This document shows, piece after piece, positions 1-13,976 of a stretch of DNA of 13,976 bases. Each line of letters begins with the position of its first letter. Position 1 is the first letter of the stretch. The stretch comes from Methanobacterium sp. (GTDB lineage Archaea; Methanobacteriota; Methanobacteria; Methanobacteriales; Methanobacteriaceae): assembly GCA_003166335.1 (NCBI GenBank), contig PMWA01000124.1:1-13976 (forward strand), written 5' to 3'. The notes under the pieces are model-generated. The model did not search any database, was not told where the DNA came from, and worked only from the letters and a program-made list of their open reading frames with translations. Position numbers and translations under genes: made by a program.

Positions 1-257
1 AAAACCCTCAAAAACGAATGTTTAAGAGAATTACGTGATAATAAAATGAGTGCTATAAGATAAAACTCTAGTATGGCCAAGACAATTAATTGGGTAGTGT
101 ATACAGCAAATACCACTATAATTAATAAAGTAATTAGCTTAACCCTACCATCTAATGAATGAATGACACTATCCTTCATAGAGGTTCTTTCAACATCAGT
201 AACTGAACCACCAACATGTAAGGCACTTAATAAAACATTCAAGTTCATAAGACTCAT
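1..257 (-). CDS. cbiQ: ECF transporter T component CbiQ/NikQ, 5' part (runs off the left edge of the window)
   Basis: Manual translation from ATG at 257: MSLMNLNVLLSALHVGGSVTDVERTSMKDSVIHSLDGRVKLITLLIIVVFAVYTTQLIVLAILEFYLIALILLSRNSLKHSFLRV. It has the typical CbiQ S-x-IH-x-LD-x-R-x-K motif followed by TM helices, and lies downstream of M and N. Not in the ORF track. Confidence 0.9.
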   Translation of the reverse strand, partial: MSLMNLNVLLSALHVGGSVTDVERTSMKDSVIHSLDGRVKLITLLIIVVFAVYTTQLIVLAILEFYLIALILLSRNSLKHSFLRV

Positions 258-371
258 CCCAGTCCATTTAGTTACATACTATTTAAAATAAAAAATTTTT
301 TTAATTTCAAAATATTTGCTTTTTATCATTCTATAATAATAAAAAATAAAGATAAAAAAAATTAATTTTTT

Positions 372-722
372 TTAGGCGTCGCTTCTTTTTGCATCAATTA
401 TTTTAGCTTCCTCACTTCTTTTTTTTCTTTTTATTATTTCACTAACACCCAATGCAACACCCATTACTATAAATAGACCCAGAACTAAAGCTAATATCCC
501 ACCTAACTTTCCACCTATTTGCCATATCTCATAATTATTGAAAGGCGCATGCCAATAACCAGGATTTACAAAGTCATTATCTTTCATTAGTGCTGGGTTT
601 AAATGTTCTGCTGTTGCACCGAGTCCGTCTGGATTGGTTGATGCTATATATGGTGAGAGGATAGCAATTATTAATGCAACAGCCACCCCTCCAATTACAA
701 CACCTTTAGTTGACCGGTTCAT
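372..722 (-). CDS. PDGLE-domain protein (NikN/CbiN-like accessory component of the ECF Ni/Co transporter)
   Basis: Two TM helices flank ASTNPDGLG (PDGLE motif, here with Gly for Glu). Its ATG overlaps the cbiM stop (ATGA at 719-722), suggesting translational coupling. Confidence 0.85.
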   Translation of the reverse strand: MNRSTKGVVIGGVAVALIIAILSPYIASTNPDGLGATAEHLNPALMKDNDFVNPGYWHAPFNNYEIWQIGGKLGGILALVLGLFIVMGVALGVSEIIKRKKRSEEAKIIDAKRSDA

Positions 723-1429
723 TTTGAAGGAGCCTCCTCTGATTCCTGTGGGCCTGTGCTTAAATCAAAGTCATCTTTATTTTTCTTACTGTTCCAGGCG
801 AGTAAATCTGGCCTTACTCTATGCAGGGTGAAAACAACAATTACGGTTATTATTGCCTCGAATATACCTATCATCACATGATAACCTCCCATGTATAAAA
901 GGCCTAATCCTAATGGAAATGTTCCGCCTAGCCACATTTCTACAGCTGCCATGCAAGCTGCTAAGAATATAGCTATCCATGCTGCTACTCCAACAGACCA
1001 GTATTTGCCTAAATTCAGCAATCCACCTAAACGTGGGTGTTTAAGCGCTTGCCACATGTAAAATCCTACAAAACTACCTATTACACCCATATTAATCACA
1101 TTTGCCCCATAGGTGGTTACTCCTCCATCTCCGAAGAATAAGGCCTGTACCATTAGTACCATAGCGATACATATCACTCCTGCCCAGGGACTCATGAATA
1201 TTATAGCAACCATTGCAGCGCCAACCATATGTCCACTGGATCCAAATGGTATAGGGATATTCATTGACATTATGGCAAATATGCCTGCAGCTAAAACTGC
1301 CATCAATGGTATGTTTTTTTCATTTAGATTGTTCCGTGACCACCGGAAAGCAAAGAATAAAAACGTTAATGCAATAACGTAATAAATTGCACACTGCCAT
1401 AGTGGTATAAATCCATCTGGTATATGCAA
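719..1429 (-). CDS. cbiM: ECF transporter S component CbiM/NikM (NikM-type, probably nickel)
   Basis: MHIPDGF N-terminus when read from TTG at 1429, with SD GGAGGAGG 6 nt upstream. Also has SSGHMVG and QALFFGDGG motifs and multiple TM helices. Confidence 0.93.
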   Translation of the reverse strand: MHIPDGFIPLWQCAIYYVIALTFLFFAFRWSRNNLNEKNIPLMAVLAAGIFAIMSMNIPIPFGSSGHMVGAAMVAIIFMSPWAGVICIAMVLMVQALFFGDGGVTTYGANVINMGVIGSFVGFYMWQALKHPRLGGLLNLGKYWSVGVAAWIAIFLAACMAAVEMWLGGTFPLGLGLLYMGGYHVMIGIFEAIITVIVVFTLHRVRPDLLAWNSKKNKDDFDLSTGPQESEEAPSK

Positions 1430-1490
1430 AATCATCCTCCTCCTCTATATCCCTATTTATAAAGAACCACAAATACATATGCTTATTAAG

Positions 1491-1529
1491 GTATTACTAA
1501 TTCCATCTCATTAATAAACCACGTAATAC
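1491..1529. promoter_or_regulatory. Inverted-repeat operator 1 (GTATTAC-N25-GTAATAC), candidate NikR-family site, in the predicted cbiM 5' leader
   Basis: Perfect 7-bp inverted repeat, 1491-1497 / 1523-1529. The same motif and spacing recur twice upstream. Confidence 0.6.
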
Positions 1530-1578
1530 TCCTTAAACATTATTCTAAACCCCTTAAACTCTTCGTTGGAATTTTAAT

Positions 1579-1596
1579 CATATAAACCTTTTCCCT
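1579..1596 (-). promoter_or_regulatory. BRE/TATA promoter of the cbiM operon
   Basis: Minus strand reads AGGGAAAAGG-TTTATATG (purine-rich BRE plus TATA box), about 150 nt upstream of the cbiM start. Confidence 0.55.
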
Positions 1597-1639
1597 AGTA
1601 TTACATAGATCTAGTTTTTTCCATGAAAAATTAATACTA
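1596..1639. promoter_or_regulatory. Inverted-repeat operator 2 (TAGTATTAC-N26-TTAATACTA)
   Basis: TAGTATTA 1596-1603 and TAATACTA 1632-1639 form a perfect 8-bp inverted repeat that abuts the predicted BRE. Confidence 0.55.
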
Positions 1640-1640
1640 A

Positions 1641-1681
1641 TTTATTACTAAAAAATGTTTTTGAGGAGTAAATGTAATAAA
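1641..1681. promoter_or_regulatory. Inverted-repeat operator 3 (TTTATTAC-N25-GTAATAAA)
   Basis: Perfect 8-bp inverted repeat, 1641-1648 / 1674-1681, with the same spacer length as operator 1. Confidence 0.5.
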
Positions 1682-2086
1682 AAAAGAATATTTTTGTTCA
1701 TTTTGAATGAATTTATTCAGATTTCCAAAAAATTATAAAAATTAATTTCTTAATAAAAACGAGAATTTTTCTCTCTGAAATAGCATTCATACAAAAAGAC
1801 ACTAATATCAATAAAATGGGAGAATAAACTAAATAAAATTTACATTTAAAAAATAGATATGAACGAGTAATGTTAATAAAAAGATAGAATTTAATCGAGA
1901 TTGAAATAAAATATCAATTTCAAAAATTAGGTTAAAATAATATTAGTAAAAAAATTCGAGAATTTAAATACATTTTAAGAAAAAAAATAGGAATTCTAGA
2001 AATTAAATAAAATTTAAGAAAAAAAATTTAATATTTTTATCTAAATTCGAGAAACTTTATGAAAATTAATTCAAAATATTTTAGTT

Positions 2087-2326
2087 TTAATCTACTACTT
2101 CAGCAAAACCAAAATTTCTTCTAGTAGAAGTTATTCTAATTTTAACTTCATCGCCCACTTTGGCACCTGAAACAAAAACCACGAAACCTTCTATACGGGT
2201 GATTCCATCACCATCTCTACCAGTATCTTCAATTTTAACATCGTATTCTTCTCCTTCATTAATAGGAGCAGAATTTCCTTTATTATTATTGTAGTTATCT
2301 CCACTACCGTAACTATTTCTAAACAA
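2087..2326 (-). CDS. Single TRAM-domain RNA-binding protein (archaeal RNA chaperone type)
   Basis: [59 protein letters not shown] is a textbook archaeal TRAM domain. Likely start is TTG at 2326, because the track's GTG at 2335 lies inside the SD-like GAAGTGAT. Confidence 0.92.
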
Positions 2327-2385
2327 ATTTATCACTTCCGATTTATGCCATATTAATATGGCTAACTATACGTATAATTTAAGAG

Positions 2386-2394
2386 TATATAAAG
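2386..2394 (-). promoter_or_regulatory. TATA box of the TRAM gene
   Basis: CTTTATATA on the minus strand, about 60 nt upstream of the start. Confidence 0.45.
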
Positions 2395-2537
2395 TTATGT
2401 ATAAAAACTTTAATATTTTATTCTAAAACTTTTTTGTAAACATATAAATGCTTAGTTTACAATGAATTTGAATTTAATCATATAAAAAATGAAAAGAATC
2501 CAAAAATCATTTAAAACAACTCAACCTACTTAAATAT

Positions 2538-3188
2538 ATGCAAATTGAAAATAATATCATCCTAGCCTTGGATCTTACTACCCTCCAAGAAGCACTCCAA
2601 GTAGCAGAAGATGTTTCAGCTTACATTAATACTATAAAGATTGGATACCCACTGGTTTTAGCTGAAGGATTAGAATGTATACATATTCATAAAGAAAAAA
2701 TTAATTGCAAAATTATAGCTGATTTTAAAGTAGCAGATATCCCCGAGACTAATCAGAAGATTACGGATTTAACCTTTCAGGCAGGGGCAGATGCTATTAT
2801 TGTTCACGGTTTTACAGGCAGGGATAGTGTAAAGGCTACATTTGAATCCGCTGAAAGTTATGGTGGAGATGTTTTCTTAGTCACGGAAATGTCTCATCCT
2901 GGTGCAGAAAATTTCATGCAGAACGTTTCAGAGGATATAGCCCGTATGGGAATGGATATGGGTATAACTAATTATGTAGCACCCTCCACTAAACTGGATA
3001 GATTGAAGAAAATAAGAGGAATCGTGGGAGATGATTCATGTATAATATCACCCGGTGTAGGAGTGCAGGGAGGTGACCCGTCACTGACCCTTGAATTAGC
3101 TGATGCATTAATCATTGGTAGATCCATCTACACTGCGAATAATCCGAAGCAAGCTCTCCAATCCATTATAGATAGCATCAAATTTTAA
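2538..3188 (+). CDS. pyrF: Orotidine 5'-phosphate decarboxylase
   Basis: IILALD, IKIGYPLVL, catalytic ADFKVADIPETN (DxKxxDIxxT), EMSHPG, SPGVGVQGG and IIGRSIY motifs. Confidence 0.98.
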   Translation: MQIENNIILALDLTTLQEALQVAEDVSAYINTIKIGYPLVLAEGLECIHIHKEKINCKIIADFKVADIPETNQKITDLTFQAGADAIIVHGFTGRDSVKATFESAESYGGDVFLVTEMSHPGAENFMQNVSEDIARMGMDMGITNYVAPSTKLDRLKKIRGIVGDDSCIISPGVGVQGGDPSLTLELADALIIGRSIYTANNPKQALQSIIDSIKF

Positions 3189-3734
3189 TCCTGCTATTTC
3201 ATAGGATATCTCGAATAAACAGAAGAATATAAAAGTATAAAAGCTTAAAAATTGTAAATCTGGAATTTGAAGAGAAGGAATCAACACTTTAAATAAACCA
3301 AGAACTGCAAGTAGGAATATTGCTATTTTAAGGGTGAATCTATATTGAAAAAAGTTATAAAGTATATTATTTTGAGTTACCCATGCATTGTCATTACCCA
3401 TCTCATCCAAGAAGGCAGCTCCTGCACATACTATTAATGTTATAATACCTATAGGGGGGATGCCTATTATTAGAATTATCCCTAAAAATATTAGTAGTGA
3501 AATAATATGATTCATGCAATCTATCTTCCAGGCCATTAAAGTTCCAATAAGAATGCCTAAAAATATCACAGCAGCATCCGCATTAGTAACTGCTAAGTAT
3601 CCAATTGAAATCCCGCAGATTACCGCTGCCATTACACCTAAAAAATTATTATTTTTCCGGTCATGAGCATCATCTGAGATTTTCATGAATAAACCAGAGA
3701 TTGCGTAGAAGAATGGTGTAAAAATATTAATCAA
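3108..3734 (-). CDS. Conserved multi-pass membrane protein of unknown function
   Basis: Long hydrophobic ORF with SGLFMKISDD, KIDCMNH and AAFLDEMGND motifs. TTG at 3734 is the more plausible start (track gives 3782). Its 3' end overlaps pyrF. Confidence 0.8.
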   Translation of the reverse strand: MINIFTPFFYAISGLFMKISDDAHDRKNNNFLGVMAAVICGISIGYLAVTNADAAVIFLGILIGTLMAWKIDCMNHIISLLIFLGIILIIGIPPIGIITLIVCAGAAFLDEMGNDNAWVTQNNILYNFFQYRFTLKIAIFLLAVLGLFKVLIPSLQIPDLQFLSFYTFIFFCLFEISYEIAGLKFDAIYNGLESLLRIIRSVDGSTND

Positions 3735-3860
3735 GCATCCTATATTTGTTTTATATAAAATCTTAAAAAAATGGATTATCATTAAATTTTATCTTAATAT
3801 AATAAATAGTATCTACAAAAAAAGAATTTCTTATTTTTTTTGTTCAAATATAATATTATT

Positions 3861-4781
3861 TTATTTGGATAAGATTTCCCATGCTCCCGCTACTATTAAA
3901 GGGAATATTATAGTGGCATCTCCAATAACTGTTACTAAATGGGATCCACATTTAGCTTTAGCCCAGGATTTGGCTTCCTCTAATGGTGCGCCACTTAAAC
4001 TTCCAGTTTCACTACGGTCCATGGTTACCTGGATACCTGCATCTACACCGCCTTTAAGAAGATTTGATGCTAATGCATAATGTTTAGGTAAACCACCACC
4101 CAGCATCACTGCAGATACCTTGGGGGATGCGTAAACAATATCAGATAACTCATGCATGTCACCCACTGCATCTAAAACTAATTCATTCTCCTGTGTATAC
4201 ATCCATAATTGTAATCCTAGCATACTATCCACAATACCAGGGGCGTAAATGGGAATCTTTTTATTAGCTGCAGTTTTTAAAATAGATTCCTCATCATCAA
4301 TTCTATCACCAATTTCAGCTAAGAATTCAGTTATAGTTAAATGATTTTTATTCCCAGCTATATCAGCGATTATCTCCGTGATTTTCTCCTCGAAAACCAT
4401 GAAATCCTCTGATTTAGTGTATATATCCCCTATTCTTCCCACACCCATCTGACAGAGTTTTTCATCATCATAACCTATATTTCGGTGGTGATGGCCTCCG
4501 AAAGCCTCCAGTAAATCATGAGTAATGTTAGCTCCGCTGGTGATTAGCACGTCAATTTCTTCTCGATGTATGAGATCTCGGATGATTTTCCGAAGCCCTC
4601 CCGGTACTAGTGGACCAGCTACACTTAAAAATACAGTGGTTTCCTTATCTTTAATCATCTGTGAGAATAACTGGGTGGCGTGGTGTATACGACCAGCACC
4701 TAGTACTCCTGTTTCTCCCATCTCTTCAATTAATTCCAGGACACTCATTTTATCCTGGAGTTTCATTTGTTTAACTTTCAA
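3861..4781 (-). CDS. dys: Deoxyhypusine synthase
   Basis: AGPLVPGGLR, ITSGANITHD, GRIGDI, PGIVDSMLG, LGGGLPKH, GSLSGAPLEEAKSWAK (active-site Lys region) and GDATIIFPL motifs. Confidence 0.96.
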   Translation of the reverse strand: MKVKQMKLQDKMSVLELIEEMGETGVLGAGRIHHATQLFSQMIKDKETTVFLSVAGPLVPGGLRKIIRDLIHREEIDVLITSGANITHDLLEAFGGHHHRNIGYDDEKLCQMGVGRIGDIYTKSEDFMVFEEKITEIIADIAGNKNHLTITEFLAEIGDRIDDEESILKTAANKKIPIYAPGIVDSMLGLQLWMYTQENELVLDAVGDMHELSDIVYASPKVSAVMLGGGLPKHYALASNLLKGGVDAGIQVTMDRSETGSLSGAPLEEAKSWAKAKCGSHLVTVIGDATIIFPLIVAGAWEILSK

Positions 4782-4950
4782 TTGTCTAACACCATTCCCT
4801 TTATTATTTACATAATAATTTGAAGAAAAAATAGATATCTAAAATTTTTTGAAATTAATATTTATAAATTTAAAATAATTATAAAAAAAGAGAACTAATA
4901 AATTTTTTAATTGCTAATAAAAATCTTTTAATAAATAGGATAATTTTATA

Positions 4951-5838
4951 TTATGCTATTTTAGGGCTGGCTATCTTATCAAGTAAGTCGGTGCGGGTTA
5001 CAATTCCCTGGGGAGCTCCAGTTCCATTTACGACTATGAGTCTCCCTATATTGTTCTTATTCATAATATCAATAGCCTCAGAGATCATTACATCCTCTTT
5101 CACCGTTATAATATTATTAGACATAATTTCTATAACTTTAAGACTCTCTCTATCTTGAGCTAAGGCCCCTGCTATATCGCTGAGAGTTAAAATTCCTAGA
5201 ATCTCTCCATCAGTGATTACTGGAGCACCCTCTATTCCCCCAGTAGTTAAAACTTTTGCAGCTTCTTTAATAGTCAGGGATGGTTTTAGGGTGATTAAAT
5301 CCTTACTAGCTACATCTATAACTTTCTTTTTAGGAATGCTCCGAATACCTGTTGTGTCGAGAAGTAGTATATTATCCATATCATCACGACCAACCACCAC
5401 ACCATTAACCACTAATTTATTAACTGGTGTAGGACCTATCCGTATTCTATCACCTAAATCAATACTTTTAATATTACCAATGGCTTTTATAGCTGCTTCA
5501 CATTCTCCAGGATGAGGTATACTAGTAAACTCAATCTTAGCCACAGTAATATCCTTCAACTCCTTTCCAGCTTTAAAAATAGGTACCTGAGTTTCTTTAC
5601 TAATATCAGTAATATTTAAAGTGTGATAAGCTTCAATTGTGGGTTTATAACCACCACGTGGACCTGGAACACCCTTAACAAGACCTAAACTTCTAAGAGA
5701 CTGCATCTGATTCCTTATCGTGCCTGGATTTCGACTCATCATCACCGCAATTTCCTCACCCTTAATAGACTTACCTTCCGCCTTCCGGTACAAATTAATC
5801 AAACTCTGCAATATTTCCTTCTGAACCGATGTTAACAT
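4951..5838 (-). CDS. Predicted transcriptional regulator: N-terminal HrcA-like winged HTH plus C-terminal CBS pair
   Basis: MLTSVQKEILQSLINLY...GTIRNQMQSLRSLGLVKGVPGPRGGYKPT wHTH. Two CBS repeats (GAPVI..GILTLSDI; GRLIVV..GIVTRTDLL). SD GGGGTGG upstream. Confidence 0.92.
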   Translation of the reverse strand: MLTSVQKEILQSLINLYRKAEGKSIKGEEIAVMMSRNPGTIRNQMQSLRSLGLVKGVPGPRGGYKPTIEAYHTLNITDISKETQVPIFKAGKELKDITVAKIEFTSIPHPGECEAAIKAIGNIKSIDLGDRIRIGPTPVNKLVVNGVVVGRDDMDNILLLDTTGIRSIPKKKVIDVASKDLITLKPSLTIKEAAKVLTTGGIEGAPVITDGEILGILTLSDIAGALAQDRESLKVIEIMSNNIITVKEDVMISEAIDIMNKNNIGRLIVVNGTGAPQGIVTRTDLLDKIASPKIA

Positions 5839-5912
5839 TGAGCAACCACCCCTAAAAAATAACTCAATAAAATTTATGATTATTTATAATTATAATTATT
5901 GATCACTTATTA

Positions 5913-5922
5913 TTATATAAAA
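5913..5922 (-). promoter_or_regulatory. TATA box of the HTH-CBS gene
   Basis: TTTTATATAA on the minus strand, about 75 nt upstream of the ATG. The surrounding sequence is AT-rich, so certainty is modest. Confidence 0.4.
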
Positions 5923-6489
5923 TTATCATTAGTTTTGAAATTCTGATTCATCTGACTCAATTACTTCATTTTTATTAAAATTTTCCTGATACTTTTCTAT
6001 CTGATTTTTCAATCCCATATTTTCATGATAAGTCCATTCATAGGCTATTCATTAAAGCAAATTGGGATATATTTGGGCTTGAAGAACCCTTCTACCAATT
6101 AGATGTTAAAATTTCTTGTTACTCCCGAAATGGAAGTTGAACGGATATTCAATATGTTAGGTATACGTATCTTCTATCAATTTATCTTTCAGGGGATTAA
6201 AAATCCTCAAGAACTTATAAGCGCCAATTATAATCATGCTTTCCAATCATTAGCAGGTATATATGTTTTCCAGTGATTTAAAAAAATTAGAAAAGATAAT
6301 AATTATTATTGGAAAAAAGCCCGGTTTAAAAGCCCATCAGATACAGGAATAACTTTCGAAAATGAAAAAAATGAATTAAAATTCATCCTTAATTATTTAT
6401 AAAAGTTTAAATTTGAATGATTACATGGGGATTTACCGGGAATTAATAACCTTTAAACCAGGGTTCCACGAATTATATATTCATCCTGA

Positions 6490-6875
6490 TTATCAGTGAG
6501 ACCTATTGGAACAATAAAAAACTGCTAATTATGAGAATAGAATCTCAATAGCTTTACAAAATTCAGGGTTTGGTCCTATGATAATTAAATCAATTGAAAC
6601 TGAAAATAATAAGGGTGAAAAAAAAGAAGTATCCCATAGACTGGATGCCTCCAGGAAGTAAAGGTGTAATTTCTAGAAAAAAATTAAAGAATGTAGCAAT
6701 AATGGCAGGTAAATATGAAATCTTGCTCAAATATAAAAGTGGTGAAAACCCAAAATGGAAGTTAGCTCCATTAAGGAAAGTGTTAAGAAGTTTAACATTA
6801 AAAGTAATGTATACCGATATTTATAATCAAGAACAACCAATGCACATTAGAGAATTTAAGGACGATTTTAGATAA
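6490..6875 (+). pseudogene. 5'-truncated, doubly frameshifted hypothetical protein
   Basis: Removing one A from each of two A-runs (about 6516-6521 and 6618-6625) gives the continuous reading LSVRPIGTIK/TANYENRISIALQNSGFGPMIIKSIETENNKGEKK/KYPIDWMPPG...VMYTDIYNQEQPMHIREFKDDFR*. Track ORF 6594..6875 is the last segment. Confidence 0.55.
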
Positions 6876-6909
6876 ATAAAACCGAGAAAAATCTTTTTCA
6901 GGGCTTTAA

Positions 6910-6936
6910 AACTAATAATGGGGTTTCTGGAGTCGG
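6910..6936 (+). repeat. 27-bp direct repeat, copy 1 (att-like core) AACTAATAATGGGGTTTCTGGAGTCGG
   Basis: Identical to 7909-7935. Confidence 0.92.
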
Positions 6937-7058
6937 GTTTAAGTTTTCAATTTTATGGGTGCCATAGTAACAAGTTTGAATAGGTAAATGCAAGAAATTT
7001 TTGAATACTCAATTAAAAATTAAAACCAAAATAATGTGATTTATAAGGAGGTTTTTTT

Positions 7059-7730
7059 ATTTCTAATGGAAATCAGCCCAATTTAGGAGAGGACTTTATT
7101 CGTTTTCACAAGGTTGTGACGCGGAGTCTGGAAGTGGCAATTCAAAATGTTGATGAGTTTTTGGAGAAAGGAGTGTTGGAAACATCTAATCGTGAAGGTT
7201 TCCTTAAATTTCTTCAGAGCTTTTCATCATTTGTGGAAGGGCATCATCTGGTCGAAGATGAGAAAGTATTTCCGTACTTCATGGATAAGTTACCTAAAGT
7301 ACCATATAAAGGATTAATGGACCAACATAAGGAGATTGAAGCAGCATTGCAGGAAATAAATAATGGAATCACTGGTTTAAGGACTCAAAAAGATGAATTA
7401 TGGTCCCTAAAATTATTTAAGTCAGGTTTAGGTCAGATAGATGAGATATGGCAACCGCATATACGGATTGAGGATTCACAATTATATACACTAGTAGGAA
7501 GTCTAAAAATAAATTCAAAAGAGATGATTAGATTAATAAATGAGGTTTCAGAGTTATTTCAAGAACACACTGGTCCTCCATATCTGATTGCGCCCTTTAT
7601 ATTATACAACTTATCACCTGAAGACCGTGCGATACAAGCCAAAGGATTTCCAGAAATTGTAATCGAACAACTCGTACCCATTGACTGGAAAGATAAATGG
7701 GCACCGATGCAACCATATCTACTAAAATGA
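7059..7730 (+). CDS. Hemerythrin/HHE cation-binding domain protein
   Basis: Metal-ligand pattern FHKVV...EGHHLVEDEKVFP...DQHKEI...PHIRIED. The first His is upstream of the track's GTG (7116). The frame opens after TAA 7044-7046, and ATT 7059 sits 7 nt after SD AAGGAGG. Confidence 0.85.
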   Translation: MSNGNQPNLGEDFIRFHKVVTRSLEVAIQNVDEFLEKGVLETSNREGFLKFLQSFSSFVEGHHLVEDEKVFPYFMDKLPKVPYKGLMDQHKEIEAALQEINNGITGLRTQKDELWSLKLFKSGLGQIDEIWQPHIRIEDSQLYTLVGSLKINSKEMIRLINEVSELFQEHTGPPYLIAPFILYNLSPEDRAIQAKGFPEIVIEQLVPIDWKDKWAPMQPYLLK

Positions 7731-7908
7731 ATAGGGAAAATTAATGCGCATTTCAGAAAGTCCTTAACTTCCGGACTATATGAATTAAAATGATCCATGA
7801 ACCCTTTATGGGGACTTAGAAGTGGATCATTATTTGTATAAAAAAAATTTGGAATTTTTTTTATTTTATATTGTCCTATACAAAATATGCACCGTTATAA
7901 TAATTCAG

Positions 7909-7935
7909 AACTAATAATGGGGTTTCTGGAGTCGG
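7909..7935 (+). repeat. 27-bp direct repeat, copy 2 (att-like core)
   Basis: Identical to 6910-6936 at an offset of 999 bp. It overlaps the start of module copy A. Confidence 0.92.
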
Positions 7936-8265
7936 TTTTTATAATTATAATTATTTAACACACATGATAATATATAAGTTTTTCCGTTTAAGCCTTATTT
8001 TTAAGTTTTTTCAGTTCTAATTGCATATTCTGGAGTAAACCTTTCATCTCATCCATCTGATTCTTGTATAACTGATTATCATACATGACTCCTTGAGAGC
8101 TTCTGATAAGTTACGATTTTCCTTTAATAACTCGTCATCTGGAGTTATTTGATTGGCTATTTCGACCATCTGCTGATATAATTCTTTGTTTTCGTTTCTC
8201 AAAGAATTATAGTCCCTTTTGAGTTGTTGGAACTCATCCAGACTCATATGAGAGCTATTTTCTTT
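7925..8265 (-). repeat. Module copy A: att arm + promoter + probable integrase 3' end
   Basis: Aligns by eye with 10731-11074 over its full length (roughly 80% identity) and in part with 12840-13007. Confidence 0.9.
7971..7985 (-). promoter_or_regulatory. BRE/TATA promoter facing the att-like site (module A)
   Basis: GGAAAAAC-TTATATA on the minus strand. The AAAAACTTATATA core is conserved in all three modules. Confidence 0.6.
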
Positions 8266-8307
8266 TATTGTTATGTATTCAATATACCTCAAATAGGCTT
8301 TTCTTCT
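7988..8307 (-). pseudogene. C-terminal coiled-coil remnant, probably of a tyrosine recombinase/integrase (copy A)
   Basis: RRKAYLRYIEYITIKENSSHMSLDEFQQLKRDYNSLRNENKELYQQMVEIANQITPDDELLKENRNLSEALKE/VMYDNQLYKNQMDEMKGLLQNMQLELKKLKNKA*, with a 1-nt deletion near 8090. It resembles, from memory, the post-catalytic-Tyr tail of Methanobacteriales integrases; that assignment is inference. Confidence 0.6.
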
Positions 8308-8380
8308 TTATATTGACGTTAAACGAAGATTTAAAATTAATGTTTAATTGTTTTTGGGAGTGATCTATATTCCATTTCTT

Positions 8381-8759
8381 CTATATTTTTCTTTTTCTCC
8401 TTTCCTGTATAAGTGTTGGTACATACATCACTGCAAAACTAATGATAATGGACAATATAATGTCTAAAGTATTTAGTATTCCAACTATCTAAAAGTTATA
8501 GTATATATATACTGCAACAGGGGCATATATTGCACTTGCAGTTACAACACCTGGAGAATATTCGCCTGTATATAAGGTAAAAGCTGCATGAATTAAAAAA
8601 TTTGAAAACACCCATGCCGCAGTTGATAATCCCAAAACAAGTGTCATTCACTGGGATAAATGTTGCAAGAAATACTGATATGAGAACATAAGCCATGAAA
8701 ATAACGTTCTCAAGAACAAACTGAGCAAATGTCTCGGGTGCACCAAATTTTTTAGTTAA
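8381..8759 (-). pseudogene. HXXEE-domain membrane protein remnant (5'-truncated, frameshift, nonsense codon)
   Basis: ...FAQFVLENVIFMAYVLISVFLATF/TLVLGLSTAAWVFSNFLIHAAFTLYTGEYSPGVVTASAIYAPVAVYIYYNF*IVGILNTLDIILSIIISFAVMYVPTLIQERRKRKI*. N-xxx-H...YSPGVVTA is the C-terminal signature of the HXXEE family. Frameshift near 8650, TAG at 8489-8491. Confidence 0.75.
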
Positions 8760-8815
8760 ACATTATTGTCATTTCATAATTTTTATAATAATGATGCTTT
8801 ATAAATAAACGCTTT

Positions 8816-9092
8816 ATGGAAAAACTTTTATGGTGTTTGATTGCTGGGTCATCAGGAGGCCCTAATCGGGCTAGAATTAAAATGCAATTACATGAAAGAC
8901 CTTATAATACAAATCAAATTGCTGAAAACCTTAATTAAATTATAAGACCGTAAAACATCATATTAAAGTTTAAAGGAGAATAACGTGATCACTTCTAGTG
9001 GAAAGAAAAAATATGGTGAATTATACTTTCTCACTAATCATAATATTAGAAAATTATGACAATTTCCAAAAAATATTTGGAATAAATTGTGA
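8816..9092 (+). pseudogene. ArsR-family winged-HTH regulator pseudogene
   Basis: [74 protein letters not shown]/...ENYDNFQKI/WNKL* matches the archaeal 'LLWxLIAGxxGGxNRARI' ArsR subfamily. At least three frameshifts. Absent from the ORF track. Confidence 0.85.
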
Positions 9093-9293
9093 TTCTCATT
9101 TAATTAGTCCATTCTTAGTTCTTTTCAAAATATCATTATAAATTAATTTTTATTAATTTATTTTTTTCATAGAAAACATTTTTTGAAAATATAAACTTTA
9201 CAATAATTTTTTAATTTAACACTTTTTTATTTATTATTAGTTCTCTCATGCTCTATTTATGGGGTTATATGTTTGGTGATAATCCTGATATTC

Positions 9294-9662
9294 ATGGTGA
9301 ATCTGAAGAAATGGGAATACGTTATAAAATCCCTTAAAAAATTAAATGCCCCTGAAAGAGCCATTGATTTAGTAGAAACTATTCAAGAACAATTAGAAGT
9401 TTATGATTTAAACAGAAATACTATTGCATGGAAATATGAGGGCAGTGGAATGATTGTAGGTGGTATGTTCGATTTAAGAGATGTTTTAGAAGTTTATGCA
9501 GATTATTGTTATTGCTGCGTATCATATCGATCTAATTGTCTTATATGTCCAATTAATTCTCCAAGCATTAAAGGATGCTGTAAAGAACTTATTGAATTAA
9601 TAGATATTGTAGCAGAGTTAGATTACCACCAGAGAAAAGAGCATCATCAATTTGTGGATTAG
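9294..9662 (+). CDS. Cys-rich hypothetical protein (CxCC-x5-CxxCP-x8-CC), possible metal binder
   Basis: Track ORF 9273..9662; ATG 9294 is the more plausible start (GGTGAT upstream). The last ~10 codons overlap the antisense integrase fragment. Confidence 0.6.
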   Translation: MVNLKKWEYVIKSLKKLNAPERAIDLVETIQEQLEVYDLNRNTIAWKYEGSGMIVGGMFDLRDVLEVYADYCYCCVSYRSNCLICPINSPSIKGCCKELIELIDIVAELDYHQRKEHHQFVD

Positions 9663-9956
9663 TCCTTTCAAGTCTAAGGAATTTATCTATAGCTTCAACA
9701 GGCTTCTTCACTTAAAAATGTTGTAAATTTTACATTCAGTTTTAGTGTCTAACCAATTTTAATGGCATATAATTCTTTTTGCTTTTGGTAATTTGATCAT
9801 AAACATGAATTTTACCTTCTTGAAAATCCCTTATTCTCAAATTTAATATATCATTGGATGATAATCTAGATTAAATTTGAGTCAAAATCAAATGCTTTCA
9901 TTTTGAATGTTTTACATGCATCAAACTAATTCTCTAATTTGATCTCTCGTCAAATA
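9631..9956 (-). pseudogene. Tyrosine recombinase/integrase catalytic-domain fragment
   Basis: Reconstructed across frameshifts: YLTRDQIRELV/DACKTFKMKAF/ILTQI*SRLSSNDILNLRIRDFQEGKIHVYDQITKSKKNYMPLKLVRH/KTECK/FTTFLSEEA/VEAIDKFLRLERTNPQIDDALFS. Patch I (LT..QI), box I-like (IL.Q.S.L...DI.NL.I.DF), the R.KT lysine loop and the LF patch occur in the right order. Confidence 0.85.
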
Positions 9957-9965
9957 TTATTAGAG

Positions 9966-10688
9966 TTATCCTGTACCATTGAAGTTGGATAATCCGTACC
10001 TGAATAAGATTACTCCATGTGTATATGGTTTTACAGCGTTGATTTCTGCGAATATGGTATTTGAACTCTTGGAAGTTGTATTTTGATCGGATTGGTAGGT
10101 TTCAAGTCCAGCTACGATTTTTCCTGGGTAAATGAAGTTGTTGATTTTAACCCAGTTTGTTAAACCGGTTGTACTCTGTCCGTAGTCACCTGTATAGAGC
10201 ATGGGAACTATGTAGTCGCATAATGGTGCTATTAGATAATAGTATTGGTTTCCATCCCATCCATCGGGTTTAACACTAAGAGAGAACTTCACTCCTTGTG
10301 TTTCTGATCTCATGGCTTTGATTTGTGGAAGATATGCGGGCATATCATGCGTTTCCACATCTAATTGAACTCCTATGTTCATTTGAGCGACTTGCGAGGC
10401 GTAATTGAATCCGGGATATACCCAAGCGTTGGTTCTTATTCCCACAGTGTCAGCTTTTGTTTTGGCTGCGGATAGTACTGATTGATAATTATCATTTGAT
10501 ACTAAAACGTATATATCAGTAATTCCAGCGCTTTTTAAATCGTTGAAATTGATTTCTGATATGGGTGTGATACTGGGGTTTATATAATAACCTACGATAA
10601 AACCACCCTCTAACGATGAGATAGCCCAATTTATACCTAATAACAGCGTAATTATTATTAAAAATGATAATATCCATTTGTATTTAAT
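9966..10688 (-). CDS. Secreted or membrane-anchored glycoside-hydrolase-like (TIM-barrel) protein of the methanobacterial cell-surface type
   Basis: The frame stays open 81 codons upstream of the track's start: [38 protein letters not shown]...[14 protein letters not shown]...GIRTNAWV...QLDVE...[12 protein letters not shown]...[10 protein letters not shown]...GVILFRYGL. Hydrophobic N-terminus. ATT 10688 lies 6 nt after SD GAGGAG. Confidence 0.75.
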
Positions 10689-10778
10689 GTTTAACTCCTC
10701 TTTATTTGTTTAACGATTTAATTTGCCCGCTCTGGAGTCGGTTTTTATTAATTATAATTTGTTTATCACACATGATTA

Positions 10779-10793
10779 TATATAAGTTTTTCC
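10779..10793 (-). promoter_or_regulatory. BRE/TATA promoter (module B), positioned to transcribe the glycoside-hydrolase-like gene
   Basis: GGAAAAAC-TTATATA on the minus strand, about 90 nt upstream of ATT 10688. Confidence 0.6.
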
Positions 10794-10796
10794 TTA

Positions 10797-11074
10797 TCAA
10801 GCCTTATTTTTCATTCTTTAAGTTCTAACTGCATCTTCTGGAGCAACACTTGCATATTAGTCATCTGATTCTTATATAACTTATTATCATACATTACATC
10901 GTTGAAAGTATATGTTAACTTCCTGTTTTCAATAGTCAAATCTTCATCTGGAGTTATTTGAGTGATTATTTCAACCATTTGTTGATATAATTCTGGGTTT
11001 TTGTTTCTCAAAGAATTATAATCCTTTTTGAGTTGTTGGAACTCATCCAGACTGACAGGAGAGCTATTTTCTTT
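10797..11074 (-). pseudogene. Probable integrase C-terminal remnant (copy B)
   Basis: KENSSPVSLDEFQQLKKDYNSLRNKNPELYQQMVEIITQITPDEDLTIENRKLTYTFNDVMYDNKLYKNQMTNMQVLLQKMQLELKE/LKNKA*, with a 1-nt deletion near 10813. Confidence 0.6.
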
Positions 11075-11172
11075 ATCCTGCCAACTACTCCACTATTTTA
11101 GTAAATCTTTAGTTATAAAATTTTAAATCGTCAGATAAAAGTTCTAACAATTAAAAAAAGGTAAGGAATATT

Positions 11173-11571
11173 TTAGATCCCGGTGGCGACTGCGGTAGCT
11201 CCTCCGTATGGAGCAGAAGTACTTTGTGAAGCGAGTGTTTTTCCACCTGTGGTTATTAAAACGGTTAGAAGTCCATTGCCGCCATCTGTTTTGCGGGCTG
11301 CGGCAGTTACAGATCCAGTTACACTGCCTATATTATTTGTTTGATTTCCAGTACCTGAGAATGAACGATATCCGAAAGGACCACTTACATCAACTGCCCA
11401 ATTACCTGAATAATTTACTACAATATTTACATCATTGGAAGCTGAAGTGTTTGAACTGGAGGTATTAGAACTCGATGTGTTATTACTTGAACTATTATTT
11501 GTAGTACAACCAGATACAGCTATTACAAAACAAATAACTAAAATTAATAGACCTATTTGAAACTTCTTCAT
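11173..11571 (-). CDS. Predicted lipoprotein with a Ser/Asn/Thr-rich linker and a small beta-rich domain
   Basis: MKKFQIGLLILVICFVIAVSGC lipobox-type signal, then an SSSNNTSSSNTSSSNTS linker. ATG 11571 follows SD GAGGGGG. Confidence 0.85.
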   Translation of the reverse strand: MKKFQIGLLILVICFVIAVSGCTTNNSSSNNTSSSNTSSSNTSASNDVNIVVNYSGNWAVDVSGPFGYRSFSGTGNQTNNIGSVTGSVTAAARKTDGGNGLLTVLITTGGKTLASQSTSAPYGGATAVATGI

Positions 11572-11841
11572 ATAATCCCCCCTCAATATTTGTTTTAATT
11601 AATTTTTTTATTAAATAACATTTATCTAAGTTTTTATAATTATTTTTTATGTATAATGGTTCGATCTTGGAATTTGCTCTCCTGGTTTTACCAATTTTCA
11701 TTTGAATGTCTTTCTAAGACTAGTAGTTTCCCTGATTTTTTCTTTAAGAAGTATCAGCTCTCATTTTCGGTTCTAATCATGATTGAATAATAAAAAATAT
11801 ATGATAAGAATTTTATAAATTAAATTTGGGAGGCTGATTAT

Positions 11842-12405
11842 ATGTCAAAAGTTAAAATCAAAGTTGTACCCTTTTCTGTTCCTATTTGCATAGCAGGTTC
11901 TATTATAAACGGAAAAATTAATTATGCCACTTACGGGTGTTTTGGACTTCTATCACCACGACCTACAACATATGTTTATATTGGTTCAGTGGAACCGCAT
12001 TATACGAACACAGGAATCAAAGAAAATGGATATTTCAGTATTAATATACCCTCAGTCGGACAAATGCAGGAAACAGATTATGTGGGACTTGTTTCTGGTC
12101 GTGATACTGATAAATCAACAGTTTTTAAATCATTTTTCGGATCTGTTGATAAGGCACCATTAATAGAAGAGTGCCCCATAAATATGCTCTGCAAACTCAC
12201 AAAAACAGTTGACCTTCCCGGTCGTGATATATTCATTAGTGAGGTTCTGGAAACATATGTGAACGAGGAATGCTTGACGGATGGAGAGTTAGATTTCATG
12301 AAAATAAACCCATTATTATTCACATCTGCTAATGGTTCATACTGGGAATTGGGGAAAATTGTAGGTTCAGCATATAAAGAAGGAAAAACTATGATAAAAC
12401 GATAG
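11842..12405 (+). CDS. Flavin reductase family protein (flavoredoxin-like)
   Basis: HYTNTGIKENGYFSINIPS, DYVGLVSGRDTDKS, APLIEECPINMLCKL and YWELGKIVGSAY motifs. SD GGAGG. Confidence 0.92.
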   Translation: MSKVKIKVVPFSVPICIAGSIINGKINYATYGCFGLLSPRPTTYVYIGSVEPHYTNTGIKENGYFSINIPSVGQMQETDYVGLVSGRDTDKSTVFKSFFGSVDKAPLIEECPINMLCKLTKTVDLPGRDIFISEVLETYVNEECLTDGELDFMKINPLLFTSANGSYWELGKIVGSAYKEGKTMIKR

Positions 12406-12414
12406 ATTCACAAA

Positions 12415-12423
12415 TTTTTTTTT
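12415..12423 (+). terminator. Poly-T archaeal terminator after the flavin reductase gene
   Basis: T9 run beginning 10 nt after the TAG stop. Confidence 0.5.
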
Positions 12424-12531
12424 AAAGATCGTTCATTAATTACAAAAATTCTGTTATCCAAAACTGAAGCTTATAAAAAATAAAGGTCAAATAATAAAGT
12501 TCTTATAAAAATAAACAATTGGGTGTTTAAA

Positions 12532-12699
12532 ATGGCGAATTTAATAGTTAATATATTATATGTAATTTTAGCAATAGTTATTGTAGTCTTTTTAGATTTT
12601 AAATATTTTAGATATGAATTTTGGAAACGGTTGATTGTAAATATATTAATTGTTTTAGTGTTTGCTGTTTTCTATTATTTGTTTTTAGTTAATTTATAA
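12532..12699 (+). CDS. 55-aa two-TM small membrane protein
   Basis: MANLIVNILYVILAIVIVVFLDFKYFRYEFWKRLIVNILIVLVFAVFYYLFLVNL*. SD-like GGGTG 6 nt upstream. Absent from the ORF track, probably because it is short. Confidence 0.8.
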   Translation: MANLIVNILYVILAIVIVVFLDFKYFRYEFWKRLIVNILIVLVFAVFYYLFLVNL

Positions 12700-12839
12700 A
12701 ATAAATGGTTAAATAACATCAATTAAGAATTTAAATGATCCTGTAAAACTTTTATTATTTTTTCGTTCTTCTTGTTTCATAGTTTTCATACATTCTTAAC
12801 ATCTTATTTCATTAAACAATTTTATTTGATATAAAACCC

Positions 12840-13007
12840 CACAAATGATAATATATAAGTTTTTAATTTTCAAGCCTTATTTTTCAATTCTTCACCTTCT
12901 AACTGCATCTTCTGGCGAAACACTTGCATATCAGTCATCTGATTCTTATATAATTCATTATCATACATTACATCATTTGAAAGCATCAGTTAAATTCCTG
13001 TTTTCAA
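12840..13007 (-). repeat. Module copy C: promoter + shorter probable integrase 3' end, att arm absent
   Basis: CACAAATGATAATATATAAGTTTTT...CAAGCCTTATTTTT...CATCTGATTCTTATATAA...TTATCATACATTACATC aligns with copies A and B, and is closest to B. Confidence 0.88.
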
Positions 13008-13010
13008 GTA
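12870..13010 (-). pseudogene. Probable integrase C-terminal remnant (copy C)
   Basis: LENRNLTDAF/NDVMYDNELYKNQMTDMQVFRQKMQLEGEELKNKA*, with one extra base near 12976. Confidence 0.55.
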
Positions 13011-13152
13011 TTTTTAGATTTCTCTTTGAAGTATATTCGTATGGATAAGATTTTGGAAACTTCATTTTGCAGATTAAAAAAAGAAATAATAGATATGTTG
13101 AACATAATATGATGTAGAAAGGAATATTTAAACCTCTAGGAGTGGATAGGAA

Positions 13153-13436
13153 ATGACTTATGTTTTGGTTATACATAAAGTTGAGGACTTTGATAAGTGG
13201 AAGTCTGTGTATGATGAAGATGGTGCTACACGCAAGGATAAAGGTTCTAAAGGTGCTTTTGTCTTTCGAAATGCTAATGATCCAAACCAACTGGTGGTCG
13301 TTAGCCAGTGGGAAAATATAGAGAAAGCTAAAAATTTTGCTGAAGCTGAAGATTTGAGAATTACTATGCAAAAGCTGGCGTTACCGGTCAACCAGATGTT
13401 TACTACTTAGAAGAGATTGAAAGAACACCTTACTAA
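13153..13436 (+). pseudogene. Dimeric alpha-beta barrel (ABM/'cyclase'-like) protein with a frameshifted C-terminus
   Basis: MTYVLVIHKVEDFDKWKSVYDED...FRNANDPNQLVVVSQWENIEKAKNFAEAEDLRITMQK. Adding one A at 13370-13373 restores the family-typical ending AGVTGQPDVYYLEEIERTPY* (TAA 13434-13436). Confidence 0.8.
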
Positions 13437-13602
13437 AAATTTTTGGTTAATAACTAATTTTCTTTTCATCTATTTTTTTTAGGTCTATTATCTCTAATTT
13501 AATTTATTATCAAAAACATTAGATAAATAATTTAAGGATACATATAGCCTTTAAAACTAATGAGGGAATAGTTATTTTTTTTTATTCGCTAAATTTTAAC
13601 TT

Positions 13603-13976
13603 TTAATATTCTGTGCTTTCTATGTTTGGGTTTGGATTGCCGGGACCTATAATAACATATGGTGTACCACCACCGACGTCACCGTAGTGTTGAGAATTAT
13701 AACCTGTATAATTCCATGTTTGCCATCCATTTCCGGTGTTGATTTCAACCCATGCATGTCGGTATCCAATTCCAGTTCCGTCGTTAACATAACCCATAAT
13801 TCTTGCCTGTATTCCTGCTGCCGTTAGTTGGTCGTATAACCATGTTGAATCAGCCCAACAATCCCCGTATCCTAATTTAGTAAGTGAATTAACATCAGAA
13901 GCTCCTTGAACATCTTGGTATTGTGCTTCTTGTTGTCCTATTGCATTTAATTTTGCTGTTGTATTTGTATTATTCG
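13603..13976 (-). CDS. Transglutaminase-like (papain-fold) domain protein, 3' part (start outside the window)
   Basis: Frame is open to the window edge: NNTNTTAKLNAIGQQEAQYQDVQGASDVNSLTKLGYGDCWADSTWLYDQLTAAGIQARIMGYVNDGTGIGYRHAWVEINTGNGWQTWNYTGYNSQHYG... It carries GDC, GIxAR and HAWVE motifs. Confidence 0.88.
   Translation of the reverse strand, partial: NNTNTTAKLNAIGQQEAQYQDVQGASDVNSLTKLGYGDCWADSTWLYDQLTAAGIQARIMGYVNDGTGIGYRHAWVEINTGNGWQTWNYTGYNSQHYGDVGGGTPYVIIGPGNPNPNIESTEY

Follow-up and report, generated by a model that had tools for sequence, protein, structure and literature searches.

Why has the leader of one conserved regulator gene come to hold so many unrelated genes, interspersed with pieces of integrases? 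The question is raised by a stretch of 13,976 nucleotides from Methanobacterium sp. (assembly GCA_003166335.1, contig PMWA01000124.1, positions 1 to 13,976; in the following, the window), for which a first-pass annotation had proposed a tandem gene-capture array between 6904 and 13561, with attachment-site (att) cores, integrase-tail modules and small cargo units. With a probability of roughly 0.78, the window contains stacked and decayed tyrosine-integrase elements together with cargo, deposited in the 5' leader of a gene for a protein with helix-turn-helix (HTH) and CBS domains (HTH-CBS) by repeated site-specific insertion at an AT-rich core.

Modules, core and target gene in the window

The features that define the array, including B recognition element (BRE) and TATA-like boxes, are as follows.

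4951-5838, minus strand: HTH-CBS host gene (HTH, HrcA-like, PF03444; CBS, PF00571), with the array in its 5' leader
5883-5900, minus strand: proximal att core of 18 bp, containing the palindrome ATAATTATAATTAT; 45 bp before the HTH-CBS start codon and just past the TATA-like box
5913-5920, minus strand: TATA-like box in front of HTH-CBS, predicted from sequence only
6905-6940, minus strand: element end arm with the 27-mer of the first-pass annotation, core eroded
7904-7937, minus strand: end arm after core A
7938-7955, minus strand: att core A, an internal attP-like junction
7956-7990, minus strand: BRE/TATA-like promoter of module A (TATA at 7971-7977)
7991-8301, minus strand: frameshifted coiled-coil tail A from the integrase 3' end, matching residues 321-417 of the integrases P0007-P0009 at 55-79%
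9622-9933, minus strand: integrase middle fragment, residues about 131-241 (E 1e-9 to 1e-15)
10731-10761, minus strand: short end arm (10731-10743) and slightly altered core B (10744-10761)
10762-11110, minus strand: module B (TATA 10779-10785, integrase 3' tail 10808-11110)
12840-13007, minus strand: module C, core lost (TATA 12852-12858, integrase tail 12873-12977)

All three modules, A at 7925-8265, B at 10731-11074 and C at 12840-13007, were located where the first-pass annotation had put them, as were the integrase fragment and both exact copies of the 27-mer. The modules are 77-88% alike pairwise (83%, 78%, 88%; E 6e-94 to 3e-27) and have no further match in the 2.49 Mb genome. Local duplication was rejected as their source, since they are only this much alike and A is nearer to its counterpart in genome G017 (93%). 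The coiled-coil tails, as had been suspected, are integrase ends: in protein comparison, the intact tyrosine integrases P0007-P0009 (417-418 aa) match the tails at 55-79%, with tail B reaching 57% to residues 333-415 (E 2e-24) and tail C 65% to residues 383-417. A homologue search with tail B alone gave no match. In genome G005, a long pseudogene includes the counterpart of the 9.6-9.9 kb fragment (87%) and continues through HxxR, HLMGH and the tyrosine into a tail. Taken together, tails, intact integrases and pseudogene identify the module as an integrase 3' end, a stop codon, a BRE/TATA-like box, the core and an end arm. The window's own fragment, first described as catalytic, is present and spans box I with the lysine hairpin; HxxR and the tyrosine lie outside it.

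The 27-mer, found exactly at 6910 and 7909, had been taken for the att core; it is the element-side arm, and the core is the adjacent 18-mer at 7938-7955. This 18-mer is an exact match to 5883-5900, these two being the only exact copies in the genome, and the longer repeat of 7938-7977 with 5883-5922 ties module A to the HTH-CBS leader. Among the matches listed, internal leader copies from three genera run to ATAATTATAA(A) and then switch to the element arm. Crossover apparently takes place in the AT-rich 18-bp core adjoining the 27-mer, and the proximal core at 5883-5900 would be the insertion site. A third copy of the 27-mer, with 6 mismatches, lies ~490 bp beyond the window end on C95, a neighbouring contig that shares 151 bases with this end and carries the outer junction of the outermost unit at 10033. 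Apart from this degenerate copy, the window's repeats are confined to their own contig in a genome-wide comparison. The array, wider than first proposed, is taken to run from 5883 to about 14,460, and the unit at 13153-13976 is presumably its oldest. Three independent DNA runs (X9, X13, X14) have contigs that cross junction A or B in the assembled form; the runs containing the window stretch are peat and permafrost metagenomes, and the related integrases are labelled Methanobacterium by their sources.

The target gene is present in 238 of the 251 family genomes searched. Boxes were named BRE/TATA-like by the archaeal TATA consensus. The core lies about 20-35 nt past the TATA box, a spacing at which archaeal transcription is expected to start, and is predicted to coincide with the HTH-CBS transcription start; with the predicted start of a protein-coding gene as target, which is unusual, each insertion would replace the promoter of that gene. 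A tail module stands directly ahead of HTH-CBS in five relatives (G017, G016, G012, G005 and G002), which leaves the element arm as the gene's only nearby promoter-like sequence. This arm would work as the HTH-CBS promoter. The module promoter, which on the integron analogy would drive the cargo, seems better read as a replacement promoter of the host gene: past 44 junctions, the first open reading frame (ORF) is sense in 19 cases, antisense in 21 and absent in 4, so that there is no co-orientation. In the window's genus the integrase ends just ahead of the promoter, and its tail therefore persists within the arm. The RNA runs consist of contigs that cover silent stretches too and are thus uninformative on promoter activity. 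Genome G062 carries HTH-CBS in duplicate, and a separate array lies upstream of either copy; the gene set of the L073 array recurs on a contig of G001 (L257) from another genus, which may reflect binning or transfer.

Intact elements, integrases and cargo in relatives

The regions upstream of HTH-CBS (4.6-79.5 kb each) were compared for 67 loci from 66 genomes, chosen non-randomly as the best HTH-CBS matches. Relatives carry intact elements at this site, with direct-repeat junctions and polarity. Integrase pieces occur in 26 of the 67 loci and two or more of them in 14; since tail-only remnants of the window's genus escape the search, 26 is a floor. All pieces (67/67) are on the HTH-CBS strand, 44 extend to the C-terminus and 4 contain the N-terminus, and each full-length integrase (3/3) is the piece nearest to HTH-CBS. 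In G076, G078, G126, G127 and L151, the proximal position is taken by an intact element. The G076 array consists of an intact 19.6 kb element and nine fragments, out to 54 kb; the G126 element measures 13.6 kb, and G127 has two elements in tandem, one of them complete and 7.1 kb long. In these three genomes the elements are flanked by the core as a direct repeat. None of the intact elements seen in place has the tail of the window's genus. Some form of the core was found in 60 of the 67 loci, and the site can be described as an insertion hotspot across Methanobacterium. Integrase ends and relatives both support the earlier proposal that related elements were taken up repeatedly and most of their backbone was lost. 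Among 39 metagenome loci, HTH-CBS is downstream on the same strand in 9, many other contigs being too short. With no tRNA at any of these 39 loci and none in the window, a tRNA or tmRNA target was rejected, in line with the first-pass annotation, which had seen no tRNA target.

The array of G134 has ten junctions within 37 kb (an eleventh motif match without arm homology was dropped); each of two left-arm classes is found joined to each of two right-arm classes, with the swap at the core. Seven of these junctions share a non-coding left arm of 270 bp (72-83% identity; L108/L109/L131), also present in G136 and G139; it lacks a TATA at the usual distance and might contain arm-type binding sites or an origin. 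Over 4.98 Mb of the window's own genome, the same loose motif has 28 matches, and a genome-wide scan with a 20-mer motif returned 33 stretches, of which 28 lay outside methanogens and were taken as chance.

The integrase family passes the PF00589 cut-off, and in fold it is closest to XerA, Tre/Cre and Tn1549 Int. Residues K198, H274, R277, H300 and Y310 are invariant in the alignment, and an arginine at position 196, two residues ahead of the catalytic lysine, is found in 36 of 37 integrases. Among 151 aligned homologues (6 misaligned rows excluded), 145 have this hairpin arginine without the box-I arginine, 4 the box-I arginine only, 1 both and 1 neither, the last having a lysine in the hairpin. 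The two features are thus nearly mutually exclusive across the family. The RxK hairpin in place of the box-I arginine is general in this Methanobacteriales-type family (P0001-P0199, L260, L261), including PsiM100 ORF29 and MSTV1; a targeted search of the open-access literature gave no account of it. The six integrases known from the HTH-CBS site and P0007-P0009 fall into one clade of 23 rows (support 100/97) in a tree that left out broken copies, C119 included. In the window's own genome, the nearest paralogue of the locus integrase is at C119:38382-39633 next to thrS; it is frameshifted, and the same frameshift recurs in two metagenome contigs (L161, L162). IMG/VR yielded no close relative of the locus integrases: P0007 as query found none, the alignment only relatives at 26-36%. 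Relatives from a plasmid search reached 25% only. In one locus, a UG21-type reverse transcriptase immediately precedes an intact family integrase (L154:8353-9870).

Intact elements of 7-20 kb combine the integrase with a helicase-like gene and defence cargo, namely Dodola, a TIR/PDC-M50 pair, type II restriction-modification and DSR1. The helicase-like protein (534-676 aa; L102:6555-8192, L255:2423-4426) is divergent and has Walker A/B motifs and four conserved cysteines. Searches in Pfam, PHROGs and PDB gave no match; by Atlas features, its 546 aa form matched DEAD/ResIII clusters with a score of 0.98, the family being annotated on 25-39% of their members. It is likely the replication gene of the elements. 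Conjugation or relaxase Pfam families were absent among the 33 ORFs of three intact elements, 22 of which had no family at all, and the part of the element ORFs that was scanned contained no virion or packaging genes. Old units have membrane, stress and signalling genes. The median size of a unit is 3.0 kb (44 units). The units of the window contain the following.

5901-6904: innermost unit, with a broken gene (6022-6493, plus strand) and a 93-codon ORF (6594-6875, plus strand)
7116-7730, plus strand: hemerythrin-domain protein (PF01814), in a 1.0 kb unit
8371-8746, minus strand: broken HXXEE-family gene
8816-9093, plus strand: broken ArsR-type HTH gene
9273-9662, plus strand: ORF of 129 aa
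9966-10690, minus strand: secreted glycoside-hydrolase-like gene, split in the window (225-236 aa in relatives)
11173-11586, minus strand: lipoprotein gene
11842-12405, plus strand: flavin reductase gene
12523-12699, plus strand: membrane protein of 58 aa
13153-13410, plus strand: ABM-like gene, outermost unit
13603 to window end, minus strand: transglutaminase-like gene, outermost unit

The innermost unit is 48-52% identical to a 334 aa ORF of the G059 array. For the glycoside-hydrolase-like gene, Pfam returned DUF4015 at E 0.075 only, and the intact form had no Pfam match. Cargo at 8371-8746, 8816-9093, 11215-11568, 12524-12699 and 13151-13941 has paralogues of 67-81% at other positions of the genome, which may indicate recruitment of cargo from the host gene pool. 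G017 (L029:15257-15862) and G016 (L031:8994-9488) contain cargo with an archaeal MCM winged-helix C-terminus, which is absent from the window. An Rfam scan gave a single match, judged to be chance. Outside the array, two 36-nt AT-rich copies, 39 nt apart, lie beside a TRAM-domain gene at 1953-2027.

Turnover of the array and rival explanations

In the proposed course of events, a circular element would recombine at the core in the HTH-CBS leader, its own arm would give HTH-CBS a new BRE/TATA, and the newcomer would displace older units outward. Deletions would then strip replication and integrase genes, so that cargo units of 0.6-5 kb remain between cores or integrase tails, and units would occasionally be cut out or put back, either through a passing integrase or through recombination between repeats. 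Catalysis, promoter function and transfer are steps that we infer from sequence.

Comparison of related arrays is consistent with such an order. The outermost transglutaminase unit beside mntP is common to G000, G017, G012, G005, G002 and G004, the hemerythrin unit is common to G000, G017 and G016 (91-94% identity), and the innermost unit differs in each of these last three. The eroded junction at 6905-6940 is also found in G017 and G016, and the cargo of 11173-12699 has another order and orientation in G016. Variants exist at the window itself, in two RNA libraries available as contigs of one run each (X15, X16). A 1,458-nt contig of X16, with 2 differences from the window, joins 5882 to 7938; exactly the 2,055 bp between two cores, that is two inner units, are gone, and the module A promoter stands before HTH-CBS. 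The same library also contains contigs of the filled form. An X15 contig has 7885-9974 replaced by 316 other letters. Strain-variable cargo with junctions at the core, which the first-pass annotation had named as supporting evidence, is thus found in relatives and in X16. A joint of 5838 to 7938 in X9, found at the 90% setting with 32 letters on one side, was left uncounted as probably a relative. Contigs of X5, X9 and X14 match window 5870-6556 with shared, different flanks on both sides, and X5 has other sequence beyond the arm at 6905; related units occur in other contexts.

Several observations weigh against repeated insertion at the core. The X16 joint comes from a single RNA library, in which template switching at the 18-nt repeat is possible, and the exact joint was in none of the four DNA runs examined. 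Integrase pieces are missing from 41 of the 67 non-randomly sampled loci, and in this genome no intact integrase of the clade was found at the locus, the C119 paralogue being frameshifted and elsewhere. Several arrays of genus g18 showed no internal core in the motif scan; integrase tails bound their units, which calls for a second mechanism and suggests deletions that fuse neighbours together with recombination between tails. Junctions or integrase-tail arrays also occur away from HTH-CBS, at L249:14233 (G057), L251:8290 (G136) and on L252 (G076). The G057 second-locus junction sits within another integrase element. Finally, the box-I arginine is missing in 37 of 37 integrases, which therefore have no canonical first catalytic arginine. 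The MSTV1 provirus, according to the accessible text of PMC11375127, excises; as its integrase has the same pattern of an RxK hairpin and no box-I arginine, lack of that residue probably does not make the enzyme inactive.

The best surviving competitor is a maintained integron analogue, in which non-autonomous arm-core-arm-cargo cassettes are kept by selection and shuffled by an integrase in trans. We regard it as unlikely, even though it would account for several features: the left arm shared by seven G134 junctions, between which most units carry 1-3 genes and no integrase piece, the small median unit size and the precise core-to-core variant of X16. It would also fit cargo that changes order and keeps strand: in g18 genomes, 61 of 589 cargo gene pairs are discordant in order and 3 of 193 are flipped in strand, compared to an order discordance of 2 in 728 at integrase-free loci. 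However, these control loci belong to other genera, and there is only a weak contrast between the inside and the outside of the fragment span when the same genome pairs are used (25/103 and 18/142 discordant). Independent insertions with the same cargo would scramble order too, many cores of the window are eroded or lost (6937, B, C), the cargo is not co-oriented with the promoter and no small-unit circle was seen. The far-reaching form of this idea, an archaeal attC-free equivalent of the integron whose integrases with a relocated catalytic arginine shuffle arm-flanked cassettes in trans at the start of a conserved regulator, is doubtful; if it were true, each insertion or excision would rewrite the promoter and couple cargo gain to the expression of HTH-CBS and possibly of dys.

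Less probable is an inert island graveyard of old insertions with no present turnover, in which the variants stem from slippage or RecA-type deletion. Every integrase piece in the window is broken, as are several cargo genes, module A and the hemerythrin unit are shared with other species at 92-94% and hence old, and an 18-bp repeat can be lost without an integrase; yet the intact proximal elements of the five relatives and the population variants of X15 and X16 at the site argue for continuing activity. Capture array and graveyard, at first set against each other, largely describe one process, a tandem accretion known from bacteria. A suicidal integrase of the SSV1/pTN3 type, with att inside the integrase gene and a C-terminal fragment left by each insertion, is known in archaea (accessible text of PMC8371274) and would suit the excess of C-terminal pieces, but it is very improbable and was rejected, because fragment starts are scattered over residues 113-350 with no shared breakpoint, there are no N-terminal halves to go with them, and the integrase gene is whole and unsplit in integrated elements.

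If repeated insertion at the core is the correct reading, the site offers a base-level mechanism by which much of the accessory and anti-virus gene content enters the chromosome in Methanobacterium, whose members are central to peat methane and biogas, with arrays that reach at least 54 kb. The integrase and its short core make a candidate integration tool for Methanobacteriales, and the hairpin-arginine family allows a simple test of active-site plasticity. A description of the locus was not found in the open-access literature; it could still be listed in subscription papers or in supplements such as island catalogues.

Comparison with known systems

Integrons, including archaeal ones, were compared using criteria from the accessible part of PMC9668308. 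There, as here, a polar array of small accessory-gene units is built at a fixed site, in an order that varies between genomes. Three of the four tested features fail, and the locus is therefore no integron: four intact integrases and one fragment gave no TIGR02249 or PRK15417 match (the IntI signature) at E 0.01, attC is not apparent, as the first-pass annotation had stated (the folding of seven junction strands does not surpass that of shuffled sequences, z -0.82 to +1.46, and the window contains no RYYYAAC...GTTRRRY pairs within 30-130 nt), and cassettes are not co-oriented. The fourth feature, a polar array with insertion at one fixed site, is present. The integrase, rather than forming a fixed platform as the first analogy implied, belongs to the mobile unit and moves with the element. 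Gene collecting at this site is likely integron-like in effect without an integron.

Closer likeness is found in the cis-mobilizable and integrative mobilizable elements (CIMEs and IMEs) of the Streptococcus ICESt1 family, for which the available text of PMC5704250 describes a three-step accretion model of site-specific insertion, decay to att-keeping units and new insertion at the target-side att, resulting in composite islands. Recombinase elements with direct att repeats, decayed att-keeping units and a newest element at the target-side att are all found here. As to decayed units leaving and being transferred together with an active neighbour, the X16 deletion contig is the one observation, and neither a circle nor a transfer was seen. 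The locus differs by its archaeal host, a target in a 5' leader at a predicted transcription start instead of a gene 3' end, up to ten junctions and the absence of conjugation genes among the 33 element ORFs scanned. In the portion of PMC3146451 at hand, Dehalococcoides ssrA islands likewise form many tandem islands with short direct repeats at a conserved gene, some without an integration module, but they depend on a serine recombinase and a tmRNA target, in contrast to the tyrosine integrase and protein-gene leader of the present case. Prochlorococcus tycheposons, as the accessible text of bioRxiv 10.1101/2020.12.28.424599 presents them, have the newest element at the target end and integrase fragments further in, a heterogeneity that peaks near the target, and small elements with replication and cargo modules; they target tRNA genes, none of which was found in the window or at the 39 metagenome loci.

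Among archaeal systems, the integrases of PsiM100 (ORF29) and MSTV1 are 26-32% identical to those of the locus and share the missing box-I arginine and the RxK hairpin. PsiM100 also uses an AT-rich intergenic att (PMC8371274, accessible text), as here; both belong to a separate tree branch and are single proviruses, not stacks. In pTN3-like integration, the element provides the promoter of the restored target, as proposed here, whereas it targets the 5' half of a tRNA and has a split integrase, compared to a protein-coding gene and an unsplit integrase at this locus. The same part of PMC8371274 mentions, each on its own, archaeal elements in tandem, AT-rich targets between genes, and promoters that an element supplies to its tRNA target. 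Methanobrevibacter vesicles contain an integrase-free 2.9 kb circle (PMC12134362, text seen in part), and by analogy such circles are a possible spread route for units. The kind of process proposed for the HTH-CBS leader, tandem accretion, is thus known; what would be new is the predicted transcription start of a protein gene as target, a replacement promoter brought by each element, and the methanogen lineage.

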